In this document: positions 91 through 733 of the stretch, one piece after another
Numbering within the stretch: position 1 is the stretch's first letter
How the letters are laid out: every line of letters begins with the position of its first letter
Origin: Escherichia coli
GTDB taxonomy: Bacteria; Pseudomonadota; Gammaproteobacteria; Enterobacterales; Enterobacteriaceae
NCBI RefSeq assembly: GCF_003334765.1
Contig: NZ_QOWT01000095.1
Strand: one strand, 5' to 3'
Length of the DNA stretch: 882 nucleotides
Program-made: the position numbers and the translations under genes
Notes under the pieces: model-generated
Database searches by the model: none
Seen by the model: only the letters and a program-made list of their open reading frames with translations
What the model was told of the DNA's origin: nothing

Positions 91-198
91 TTACTTCCGG
101 TTACGCCACCAGCTGACAATCGCTGCGGTAATAATTCCCGCCAGGATCGGTGCTGCCAGGTCGTGCCAGAAAATCATGGCAAACTGCGCGAGCGTCAT
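91..198 (-). CDS. ldr: Type I toxin Ldr, 35-aa small membrane peptide (LdrA/LdrC-type sequence); paralog letter cannot be assigned from sequence
   Basis: Reverse complement of 91-198 reads ATG ACG CTC ... CGG AAG TAA, giving MTLAQFAMIFWHDLAAPILAGIITAAIVSWWRNRK. This is a hydrophobic helix with a basic C-terminal tail, matching the Ldr toxin family from memory. An AAGG Shine-Dalgarno-like motif (complement of 206-209) lies 7 nt upstream of the ATG (196-198). The gene is shorter than the ORF-track threshold, so it is absent from the track. Confidence 0.9.
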   Translation of the reverse strand: MTLAQFAMIFWHDLAAPILAGIITAAIVSWWRNRK

Positions 199-210
199 AT
201 AGCCGCCTTG

Positions 211-239
211 TTGTAATGACAACATTTTGCGGCTATTCT
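211..239 (+). promoter_or_regulatory. Candidate sigma70 promoter of rdl (copy 1)
   Basis: -35 TTGTAA (211-216), 17-nt spacer, -10 TATTCT (234-239), about 7 nt before the proposed Rdl 5' end at 246. Motif match is moderate and was read by eye. Confidence 0.5.
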
Positions 240-245
240 TGAAGT

Positions 246-312
246 GTCTGGTTTCAAGATTAGCCCCCGTTCTGTTGTCAGGTTTTACCTCTCAACGTGC
301 GGGGGTTTTCTC
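246..312 (+). ncRNA. rdl: Rdl antisense RNA (type I antitoxin), about 60-67 nt, complementary to the ldr 5' leader
   Basis: The sequence GTCTGGTTTCAAGATTAGCCCCCG...CGGGGGTTTTCTC matches my recollection of Rdl. It sits downstream of a sigma70-like promoter (211-239) and ends in an intrinsic terminator: stem CCCCCG (264-269) pairing with CGGGGG (300-305), then TTTTCTCTTT (306-315). It lies antisense to the ldr leader, as established for ldr/rdl. The exact 5' and 3' ends are estimates. Confidence 0.75.
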
Positions 313-388
313 TTTCCAGCAACCAATGCCACCAGGGATAAAGCCCCCGCAACATTGCGCCTCACCGGATAATTCCGGCTTGGTGTGG

Positions 389-417
389 ATACTACGTCTC
401 AATTCATCTTCACTTCA
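389..417 (-). promoter_or_regulatory. Candidate ldr promoter region, minus strand (tentative)
   Basis: On the minus strand, TAGTAT (complement of 394..389) is a reasonable -10, but the -35 at the proper spacing (TGAAGT, complement of 417..412) is poor. A start near 381 would give a transcript of about 377 nt to the terminator T-run, consistent with the roughly 370-nt ldr mRNA reported in the literature. A small hairpin CCGGA/TCCGG (complement of 378-365) would sit at the 5' end. Placement is inferred, not demonstrated. Confidence 0.25.
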
Positions 418-535
418 TCCCTGAAATGTTTGCAATAAAGAGTACATTCCGGCTTTTCAACAGCTGTTGCAGTCGTTTCATGAGTGCTCTGGATGATGCT
501 TCCAGCTCGGGTTGCCAATATTTACTTGTGGAAGA

Positions 536-576
536 GATAAAGACAAAAATGGCCGCAGGCTGTTACCCCTGCGGCC
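536..576 (-). terminator. Rho-independent terminator of the ldr mRNA (copy 2)
   Basis: Identical hairpin (551-559 with 568-576) followed on the minus strand by a T-rich run (complement of 550..536), downstream of the ldr copy at 626..733. Confidence 0.72.
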
Positions 577-625
577 GGTTTCGGGCGCATATTGCCATCA
601 CGGCAGCCTGACGCCCGTTTTCACC

Positions 626-733
626 TTACTTCCGGTTACGCCACCAGCTGACAATCGCTGCGGTAATAATTCCCGCCAGGATCGGTGCTGCCAGGTCGTG
701 CCAGAAAATCATGGCAAACTGCGCGAGCGTCAT
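626..733 (-). CDS. ldr: Type I toxin Ldr, 35-aa small membrane peptide, second copy (identical to 91..198)
   Basis: Same sequence as 91-198 shifted by 535 bp: ATG complement at 731-733, stop complement at 626-628, identical 35-aa product. Confidence 0.9.
   Translation of the reverse strand: MTLAQFAMIFWHDLAAPILAGIITAAIVSWWRNRK

Follow-up and report, generated by a model that had tools for sequence, protein, structure and literature searches.

Two toxin–antitoxin units in a long direct repeat

The window analyzed here, a stretch of 882 nucleotides of Escherichia coli DNA, contains two copies of a small toxin gene, ldr, each accompanied on the opposite strand by an Rdl antisense RNA (Table 1). 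Comparing the window with itself revealed that positions 1–347 were identical to positions 536–882 (0 mismatches over 347 positions at an offset of 535), which, with one ldr and one rdl per unit and a period of 535 bp, agrees with the definition of the LDR as a tandem repeat of ~530 bp. In annotation tables the K-12 LDR copies are also spaced 535 nt apart, and both RefSeq and the curated K-12 annotation place the locus in the interval from kdsA to chaA. Each of the 5426 complete E. coli genomes searched contained a match spanning at least 80% of the window. Strain 184/2aE matches it exactly and has three identical copies, and the RefSeq record that is 100% identical to the window has its Ldr toxins at 3091–3198 and 3626–3733, equivalent to window positions 91–198 and 626–733. 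The window is almost certainly a part of the chromosomal LDR array (the ldrA-ldrB-ldrC region) made up of two identical ldr/rdl type I toxin–antitoxin units, with the plus-strand ORFs of 61–79 amino acids being non-coding by-products.

Table 1. Positions of genes, RNAs, ORFs and structural elements in the 882-nt window.
Feature	Position	Strand	Description and source
LDR repeat	1–882	.	~1.65 units of the 535-bp long direct repeat
ldr intrinsic terminator, copy 1	6–41	-	GGCCGCAGG-loop-CCTGCGGCC then ATTTTTGTCT; terminator scan and fold
ldr toxin CDS, copy 1	91–198	-	35 codons plus stop; Pfam; RefSeq WP_000170955.1 at identical coordinates
Leader ORF, candidate ldrX	195–257 (copy 2, 730–792)	-	20 codons, TTG start; ORF list
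hok-type leader likeness	196–348 (copy 2, 731–882, cut by the window end)	-	RF01794, below threshold
ldr leader stem-loop	199–236 (copy 2, 734–771)	-	Pairs AUAGCCGC with GCGGCUAU
Putative Rdl promoter	211–239	+	TTGTAA-17 nt-TATTCT, found by eye; 8/12 positions; ends 6 nt 5′ of Rdl
Spurious 65-aa ORF	227–424	+	TTG start; contains Rdl (246–311)
Rdl antisense RNA (antitoxin), copy 1	246–311	+	Rfam RF01813, 91.4 bits, E 4.9e-20, model 1–66/66
Spurious 61-aa ORF	426–611	+	Spans the inter-repeat spacer and an ldr terminator
Spurious 79-aa ORF	512–751	+	TTG start; antisense to the entire ldr CDS at 626–733, in the codon-complementary frame
ldr intrinsic terminator, copy 2	541–576	-	Stem 576–551; terminator scan
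ldr toxin CDS, copy 2	626–733	-	Identical to copy 1
Rdl antisense RNA, copy 2	781–846	+	Rfam RF01813, 91.4 bits, model 1–66/66

The ldr reading frame and its start codon

The 35-amino-acid product aligned over its full length (residues 1–35 on positions 1–35 of 35) with the Pfam family PF13940, Ldr_toxin (85.9 bits, E 1.8e-24), and was 100% identical to K-12 LdrA and LdrC. It has a hydrophobic core, with a maximal 17-residue Kyte–Doolittle window of 2.02 at residue 14, and ends in a basic C terminus (RNRK). A profile search of NCBIfam, which yielded no Ldr-specific model, returned a sub-threshold match to Fst as the sole hit. Among 31 distinct sequences compared across species, the ldr frame had the lowest pN/pS of the six frames (0.38), a pattern that points to purifying selection being strongest in this frame. 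The length of 35 codons was retained in 28 of 30 other-species loci, the exceptions being one locus in which codon 31 is a premature stop (L008) and one matched at residues 12–35 only (L031). The initial annotation had proposed that the two genuine coding sequences of the window are 35-codon genes on the minus strand, and the full-length Pfam match, the agreement of the K-12 and PGAP annotations, and the pN/pS values all bear this out, with the refinement that the unfiltered ORF comprises 44 codons.

These mechanically called minus-strand ORFs (91–225 and 626–760, 44 amino acids each) enclose the 35-codon coding sequence, which begins at the second ATG with AAGGCGG just 5′ of it. An in-frame ATG thus lies 9 codons upstream of the ldr ATG (at 225 and 760), and a 44-amino-acid form is annotated on 740 contigs (43- and 55-amino-acid forms are also found in databases), raising the alternative that the true toxin is the N-terminally extended protein. 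We consider this very unlikely. The upstream ATG is confined to the E. coli ldrA-C type and is found neither in ldrD nor in other-species loci with an ldr-type 5′ region, two of which (L008 and L011) have another in-frame ATG, 6 codons upstream. It also has no Shine–Dalgarno sequence, and its position is the loop region of a conserved stem, whereas the start of the 35-amino-acid form, with its AGGCGG, was invariant in 30 of 30 aligned loci. Moreover, the Pfam Ldr_toxin model spans exactly residues 1–35, and the title of the original characterization (Kawano et al., 2002, as cited in PMC8167048) describes a 35-amino-acid peptide.

Plus-strand ORFs are open by chance

The ORFs of at least 60 amino acids in the window were three plus-strand frames only, of 65, 61 and 79 amino acids, so that a default cut-off of 60 amino acids reproduces the ORFs described in the initial annotation. 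As had been stated there, these frames overlap a toxin gene, the antisense RNA, and terminator hairpins; the hairpin at 551–576 is covered by both the 61- and the 79-amino-acid ORFs. Their number was at the chance level: in 2000 mononucleotide shuffles of the 882 nucleotides the mean count was 1.9, and the probability of obtaining three or more was 0.29. None of the three matched a family in an NCBIfam search.

That at least one of these ORFs is a real gene, with both strands of the locus coding, appears extremely improbable, even though the ORFs exist, many GenBank records list them as proteins, and some antisense frame over ldr is open in many species. Both the 65- and the 79-amino-acid ORFs require a TTG start. 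The boundaries of the 65-amino-acid ORF had no counterpart in the ldrD locus or other-species loci, nor did those of the 61-amino-acid ORF (relative to the ldr ATG, 122 to 308), and the boundaries and frames of plus-strand ORFs varied among species. Because the 66-nt Rdl ends at position 311, translating the 65-amino-acid ORF would also require a transcript extending 113 nt past the Rdl terminator. In 20 of the 31 distinct orthologues compared, a stop interrupted the 79-amino-acid frame in the part that overlaps ldr, and its pN/pS was 0.76, twice the 0.38 of ldr; the frame is open here because ldr contains no TTA, CTA or TCA codons, so its openness is accounted for by the codon content of the toxin gene. 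Finally, none of the three ORFs was present in curated K-12 or in the 75 sampled RefSeq rows described below. The 65- and 61-amino-acid frames are open by chance, and the plus-strand ORFs are non-coding by-products.

Openness of an antisense frame was also considered as a signal of a gene and was rejected, the codon-complement frame being closed in 20 of 31 sequences. For the other antisense frame that is often open, third positions shared with ldr suffice to explain why it has no stops and a pN/pS of 0.51.

With respect to ribosome profiling, ldr was not mentioned in the Weaver et al. preprint, the supplement of the Stringer et al. preprint, the main text of the Meydan et al. preprint, or 'The Cryptic Bacterial Microproteome', and one paper drops ldrA and ldrC because of their near-identical coding sequences. 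Profiling, which the initial annotation had put forward as a check, is hampered at this locus because near-identical copies such as these are excluded from standard analyses.

Annotation of the locus in public databases

The initial annotation had anticipated that automated annotation of the region would call hypothetical proteins and miss the toxin. Miscalls are indeed documented: GenBank contains exact translations of all three ORFs under the name 'hypothetical protein', with 845 contigs for the 65-amino-acid ORF, 11 for the 61-amino-acid ORF at 426–611, and 5 for the 79-amino-acid ORF, with a further start variant of the 65-amino-acid frame (61 amino acids, from the TTG at 239) on 225 contigs. 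Many of the deposited entries are partial, lying at the end of a contig, and a few members of the cluster of the 65-amino-acid ORF bear the name 'integrase, partial'. Such calls are not the usual outcome, however, since among 75 rows for complete genomes sampled from 5441 matching RefSeq records, such a spurious coding sequence was annotated in none (0/75) and Ldr in every one (75/75). The expected loss of the toxin did not materialize in GenBank either, where assemblies with the spurious ORFs also call the 35-amino-acid Ldr, adjoining or overlapping them, with the single exception of a 619-nt contig (L042). What annotation does lose is the Rdl RNA, which was missing from all PGAP tables examined and present in curated K-12, and sometimes the correct Ldr start. 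The lesson for annotation is that length-filtered ORF lists display only artefacts at the LDR, which have found their way into public protein sets in hundreds of cases, some of them as 'integrase'.

Rdl is complementary to the middle of a structured leader

Both Rdl copies scored well above the RF01813 gathering score of 50 bits. The predicted fold begins with an unpaired 5′ tail, after which comes a terminator-type stem-loop (minimum free energy −26.7 kcal/mol, z −4.5). Because of the cis arrangement, complementarity between Rdl and the ldr leader is perfect. The region complementary to Rdl lies in the 5′ leader of ldr and not at its start site, with a gap of about 47–48 nt to the ldr ATG (198–196 on the minus strand). 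This offset equals that of rdlA-C in curated K-12, and an Rdl was found at the matching position in 19 of 20 other-species loci (in Escherichia, Kluyvera, Pseudocitrobacter, Citrobacter and Klebsiella).

A consensus promoter scan of the window found no promoter for ldr or Rdl, and because it found none for ldr we infer the 5′ end of the ldr mRNA. The putative Rdl promoter in Table 1 has a match below the cut-off of that scan, and both of its hexamers fall in conserved alignment columns. At the other end of the ldr transcript, the terminator scan assigned the copy 1 terminator a stem (41–16) of 9 pairs, 8 of them G-C.

Immediately upstream of the toxin gene, the leader stem-loop encloses the Shine–Dalgarno sequence AGGCGG directly 5′ of the AUG. 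This structure was predicted from the single sequence (z −3.9) and also appeared in the RNAalifold consensus. Across 30 sequences, helices 4 and 5 of the leader were 97.5% and 99.3% paired, respectively, with one compensatory pair (C-G in 19, U-A in 10). Over the leader as a whole, 96% of cells were paired, compared with 33–50% when partners were slid, and compensatory changes were seen in 6 pairs. These predictions argue that the ldr ribosome-binding site is locked inside a conserved stem.

A model for indirect repression

The gene identities, coordinates, conservation, RNA structures and complementarity are demonstrated in the present analysis, and toxicity of the copies here is carried over from the literature on LdrD, overproduction of which is reported to kill or arrest the cell, with the toxicity relieved by RdlD (PMC4147584); double-stranded RNA of ldrD-rdlD has been reported to form (PMC7373196). 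Each unit would produce a minus-strand mRNA consisting of a leader of probably ~150–180 nt, the 35-codon ORF and the intrinsic terminator, the ORF product being a small hydrophobic membrane toxin, while the opposite strand would give rise to a 66-nt Rdl RNA that is a perfect complement of the middle of the leader. Because the ldr ribosome-binding site lies in a conserved stem and is not covered by Rdl, repression by Rdl is most likely indirect, in the manner proposed for hok/sok. Rdl would pair with a leader hairpin bearing a second, upstream ribosome-loading site (GGGGG then TTG), and this pairing would prevent either the upstream translation or the refolding on which opening of the ldr start depends; the resulting duplex would, in addition, be a substrate for RNase III. 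We infer the coupling between upstream loading and opening of ldr.

The upstream site corresponds to a 20-codon TTG frame that is a candidate match to ldrX, a leader frame hypothesized previously (PMC4147584, PMC8167048). Complementing the main explanation is a mok-like model in which ribosomes translating this leader ORF free the ldr start and Rdl prevents that translation. The GGGGG box lies 6 nt 5′ of the TTG, the box and the start both fall inside the Rdl-complementary region, and the stop of the leader ORF overlaps the ldr start as ATGA. Of 30 distinct leaders, 25 had both the TTG and the box, and in every one of these 25 the frame was open up to the ldr start. Sequestration of the ldr Shine–Dalgarno sequence in a stem, alignment of the leader over its whole length with a hok-type leader model, and the earlier proposals of such a model in the literature (PMC4147584, PMC8167048) also speak for it. 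The relation of the TTG frame to ldr varies, however: in ldrA-C and Salmonella the frame stops at the ldr ATG, in ldrD and Citrobacter it is that of the toxin itself, and most Klebsiella loci have a replacement for the TTG. In addition, the TTG sits in a hairpin (237–259) with 4 compensatory pairs, so conservation of the TTG is explicable by RNA structure and Rdl complementarity alone, and a review describes the ldrX hypothesis as unconfirmed (PMC4147584). Since the peptide sequence of the upstream TTG frame is not conserved, the coupling model may be wrong or lineage-specific, and we regard translation of the leader ORF as possible but doubtful.

A related question is whether the leader shares ancestry with that of hok. 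The hok-type leader model RF01794 aligned with the ldr leader over its full length (model 1–157/157, ending on the ldr AUG) at 29.3 bits (E 1.5e-4), and with the other copy at 25.8 bits; by this alignment the leader may begin near position 348. Full-length matches were repeated in 7 of 7 other species (20.3–47.1 bits), although no ldr leader, in the window or in the seven other species, reached the gathering score of 59. By Rfam's criterion, then, the ldr leader is outside the hok family despite its probably hok-like way of working. Possible but likewise doubtful, and put forward here as speculation, is that the ldr and hok-type leaders are related by descent rather than merely analogous. The ldr leader would then keep a mok-equivalent GGGGG-TTG loading site within the Rdl target whose frame relation to the toxin has drifted, and each repeat would have a second translated element. 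If this were true, that element would be absent from the ORF track and from current annotation, and the in-frame TTG of ldrD and Citrobacter would give a 55-amino-acid extended proteoform.

Comparison with known systems

The ldr/rdl pair is already well described as a type I toxin–antitoxin system, of which the window is an unremarkable example that presents nothing biologically new. The known system closest to the window is the K-12 MG1655 array of ldrA-rdlA, ldrB-rdlB and ldrC-rdlC, with which it shares the kdsA-chaA locus, the 535-bp spacing, the CDS length and the ldr-to-rdl offset. The difference lies in the composition of the copies: both of those in the window are of the LdrA/LdrC type and identical over 347 nt, whereas the middle copy of K-12, LdrB, differs at two residues.

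Like the units in the window, K-12 ldrD-rdlD encodes a 35-amino-acid toxin with an Rdl antisense to its leader and the same leader stems. It differs in having 57% protein identity and in being present as a single copy at another locus, beside bcsG. Furthermore, its upstream TTG is in frame with the toxin owing to a 1-nt difference in the leader; the TTG frame of the window instead ends at the ATG. ldrD is the experimentally characterized member of the family.

As stated in reviews (PMC4147584, PMC8167048), ldr is also analogous to hok/sok/mok, in which a small hydrophobic toxin is likewise encoded behind a long structured leader with a closed toxin start, and the antisense RNA, as is proposed for Rdl, aims at an upstream ribosome-loading site in the leader and not at the toxin start. 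The hok toxin belongs to another Pfam family, however, and ldr scores 20–47 bits against the gathering score of 59 in the leader comparison. Whereas mok is an upstream frame overlapping hok (PMC4147584, PMC8167048), the candidate leader frame of ldr has 20 codons and its frame is not conserved.

A more distant likeness is to the Gram-positive Fst and RNAI-RNAII (par) system. The C-terminal two-thirds of Ldr is weakly similar to the NCBIfam Fst model (E 0.022), a match below the curated cut-off (14.6 versus 26 bits), and the RNA arrangement of Fst differs from that of ldr/rdl; Ldr and Fst have been grouped in one superfamily (PMC4147584).

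Coding content of the window

The initial annotation had held that the real coding content of this stretch is hidden from an ORF track, and our analysis bore this out: the two 35-codon minus-strand ldr genes were real, whereas the only ORFs of at least 60 amino acids in the window were three plus-strand frames. The 35-amino-acid product is identical to K-12 LdrA and LdrC and gives a full-length match to Pfam Ldr_toxin (E 1.8e-24), and the automated RefSeq pipeline (PGAP) places the same CDS at the same coordinates in a record that matches the window at 100%. The shorter of the two possible starts is preceded by an AAGGCGG box 7 nt upstream; within the window, no comparable box was found for the upstream ATG of the 44-amino-acid form, and this ATG is confined to E. 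coli copies of the ldrA–C type, being absent from ldrD and from same-type loci of other species.

Features of the window
Feature	Position	Strand	Basis
Minus-strand ORFs	91-225, 626-760	-	mechanical list, 44 aa each
ldr toxin CDS	91-198, 626-733	-	final 35 codons of the 44-aa ORFs, reading MTLAQFAMIFWHDLAAPILAGIITAAIVSWWRNRK
ldr mRNA terminator	41..16, 576..551	-	G+C-rich hairpin, then T-run
Rdl antisense RNA	246-311, 781-846	+	RF01813, 91.4 bits
TTG leader frame, 20 codons	195-257, 730-792	-	TGA overlaps ldr ATG as ATGA
RF01794 match, ldr leader	196-348, 731-882	-	29.3 bits, E 1.5e-4 (196-348)
65-aa ORF, TTG start	227-424	+	ORF list
61-aa ORF, ATG start	426-611	+	ORF list
79-aa ORF, TTG start	512-751	+	ORF list

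For comparison we used 30 loci with Ldr-related products, found in Escherichia, Kluyvera, Pseudocitrobacter, Citrobacter, Klebsiella and Salmonella, together with one 503-nt contig labeled as Bacillus. The ATG, the AGGCGG box and the 35-codon frame were retained in 28 of these loci, the exceptions being L008, in which ldr stops early at codon 31, and L031, in which the match is limited to residues 12–35. Of the six frames, that of ldr had the lowest pN/pS (0.38), as calculated from 31 distinct coding sequences. For the Ldr and Rdl families and for the LDR repeat, all features testable by these methods were present; the evidence for toxicity and its repression by Rdl is published work on ldrD.

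Two of the comparison loci deserve separate mention. In L008 (Pseudocitrobacter vendiensis, ldr at 701-) the stop follows codon 30, yet an intact Rdl match (85 bits) remains, making this a possible toxin pseudogene with its antitoxin retained. The Bacillus-labeled contig (L025, Bacillus sp. EB106-08-02-XG196, coverage 0.66) carries an ldrD-like gene nearly identical to E. coli LdrD, which is probably assembly contamination.

The plus-strand ORFs

As initially noted, the plus-strand ORFs overlap an antisense RNA (Rdl, 246-311), a terminator (551-576) and a toxin gene (626-733). Three ORFs of this length are at chance level (shuffle mean 1.9; probability of three or more, 0.29). The 79-amino-acid ORF lies in the frame that is exactly codon-complementary to ldr. 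This frame has a pN/pS of 0.76 and, in 20 of 31 sequences, meets a stop within the ldr sequence; it is open in the window only because this ldr allele lacks TTA, CTA and TCA codons. Another antisense frame over ldr is often open, with a pN/pS of 0.51, but the third codon positions that it has in common with ldr are sufficient by themselves to explain both the low ratio and the absent stops. ORFs on the Rdl strand over the leader and spacer vary among species in frame and boundaries, and none with the boundaries of the 65- or 61-amino-acid ORF was found in ldrD or any other-species locus. None of the plus-strand translations matched NCBIfam, and none of these ORFs is annotated in the curated K-12 genome. 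We conclude that the three plus-strand ORFs are not genes.

Annotation in public databases

Automated annotation had been expected to miscall hypothetical proteins here and to miss the toxin. The first expectation was correct for the public protein collection, in which the exact 65-, 61- and 79-amino-acid translations are deposited as 'hypothetical protein', but not for RefSeq complete genomes, in which all 75 sampled rows (the top 15 and 60 others distributed over the lower match ranking) have 'type I toxin-antitoxin system toxin Ldr family protein' as their sole annotation under the match. The 65-amino-acid ORF occurs on 845 contigs and a 61-amino-acid start variant in the same frame (TTG at 239) on 225, compared with 11 for the 61-amino-acid ORF at 426-611 and 5 for the 79-amino-acid ORF; the protein clusters of the 65-, 61- and 79-amino-acid ORFs have 130, 112 and 34 members, respectively. 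Several members of the 65-amino-acid cluster, in some Shigella and E. coli GenBank entries, are called 'integrase, partial', a propagated misannotation of an Rdl-overlapping ORF that is unsupported because the ORF has no NCBIfam match. Many miscalls are partial and lie at contig ends (one 83-amino-acid ORF spans an entire 253-nt contig), which fits short-read assemblies broken by the repeat.

The second expectation failed, as Ldr was called not only in the 75 RefSeq rows but also in GenBank. Assemblies with 65- or 61-amino-acid calls also had the adjacent 35-amino-acid Ldr genes called, and wherever the 79-amino-acid ORF was called, Ldr was called inside it on the opposite strand, with the single exception of a 619-nt contig. 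Errors did affect the Ldr start, with a 44-amino-acid form on 740 contigs and 43- and 55-amino-acid forms also present. The feature absent from automated annotation was the antitoxin: rdlA–D are annotated in curated K-12, whereas no Rdl RNA was annotated in the PGAP tables and rows examined (NZ_CP072858.1, NZ_CP081007.1 and the 75 sampled rows), despite scoring 91 bits against Rfam. The initial interpretation is therefore partly supported: a fair caution about the ORF track, it overstated the risk to the toxin and overlooked the unannotated RNA antitoxin. Our search for ribosome-profiling evidence found none for either strand of the ldr locus; standard analyses leave out nearly identical copies, ldrA and ldrC among them (PMC5318159), so a ribosome-profiling check needs repeat-aware mapping.

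Position in the LDR array

The window spans ~1.65 copies of a direct repeat with a 535-bp unit, 1-347 being identical to 536-882. It was matched at ≥80% coverage in all 5426 complete E. coli genomes searched by megablast, at a median of five places per genome. In strain 184/2aE the 100% match lies between kdsA and chaA; curated K-12 MG1655 carries ldrA–rdlA, ldrB–rdlB and ldrC–rdlC at 535-nt spacing in this interval, which places the window within the classical LDR array. Its ldr/rdl system is a known one, in the position where it normally lies.

Within single 1.5-kb loci, L023 (Klebsiella spallanzanii) and five others (L022, L004, L006, L017 and L020) had two or three Rdl matches spaced by ~480–540 nt, indicating that tandem LDR arrays are not limited to E. 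coli. An additional LDR pair in E. coli XL1-Blue (L043, NZ_CP081007.1, 4643686-4649567) is surrounded by a patchwork of tuf, RHS, IS1, IS2 and phage pieces, all truncated and flagged as partial pseudogenes, and looks like an assembly artefact built from repeat pieces.

Structure of the ldr leader

Rdl folds into a single-stranded 5′ tail and a strong terminator-type hairpin (z -4.5), and is complementary to the ldr leader 48–113 nt upstream of the ATG, which leaves both the ribosome-binding site and the start codon of ldr uncovered. This arrangement was retained in 19 of 20 other-species loci. Immediately 5′ of the AUG, AUAGCCGC and GCGGCUAU of the leader form a stem, inside which lie the AGGCGG box and a second, inner stem (GUUGY/RCAAC), and within the Rdl target a hairpin (237-259) holds a TTG with GGGGG 6 nt upstream. 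Across 30 aligned leaders, which are related sequences and in which two of the five helices are merely the complement of the Rdl hairpin, pairing was kept in 96% of cells, compared with 33–50% for slid partners. Six leader pairs showed compensatory changes, including four in the TTG hairpin and one in the inner stem (C-G in 19, U-A in 10). Among small-protein genes, ldrA–C have some of the weakest RBS scores.

Of 30 distinct leaders, 25 had both the TTG and the GGGGG box, and in all 25 the frame ran unbroken from the TTG as far as the ldr start. It terminates at the ldr ATG in ldrA–C, Salmonella and one Kluyvera copy. In ldrD, Citrobacter and others it reads into ldr in frame, which would yield the 55-amino-acid forms found in databases. 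Coupling of the hok/mok kind through a leader frame, 'ldrX', has been proposed and is unconfirmed (PMC4147584; PMC8167048; PMC5416894). In most Klebsiella loci the TTG is replaced and a second change in the hairpin compensates for it, such that RNA structure alone could explain the conservation of the frame, and we consider a translated leader rather doubtful.

In the mechanism that we propose, leader RNA structure closes the ldr start, and Rdl would act upstream, blocking either refolding or a site at which ribosomes load; the structures and the complementarity come from the present analysis, and we infer that this upstream step is coupled to opening of the start. Pairing of Rdl would also create an RNase III substrate. 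Double-stranded ldrD–rdlD RNA has been captured in vivo (PMC7373196).

Relationship to known toxin families

The RF01794 ('sok') consensus is 157 nt long and terminates in an AUG, and the model therefore appears to represent the leader strand of the toxin mRNA rather than the antisense RNA. All of the model (1-157) aligned to the leader in the ldr orientation, and the alignment terminated exactly on the ldr AUG. All seven loci tested from other species (L003, L007, L009, L010, L014, L022 and L032) gave the same end-to-end alignment, at 20–47 bits, the best being Klebsiella oxytoca (E 3.9e-8). This recurrence supports an ldr leader built like a hok-type leader. Yet no ldr leader from the window or the seven species reached the gathering score of 59 bits, and ldr is thus not a member under Rfam's rule: the resemblance to hok/sok spans the whole model but stays below its threshold. 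Separately, Ldr residues 15–35 gave a weak, sub-threshold match to the NCBIfam model of the Fst type I toxin (E 0.022, 14.6 versus 26 bits), in agreement with the published Fst/Ldr superfamily.
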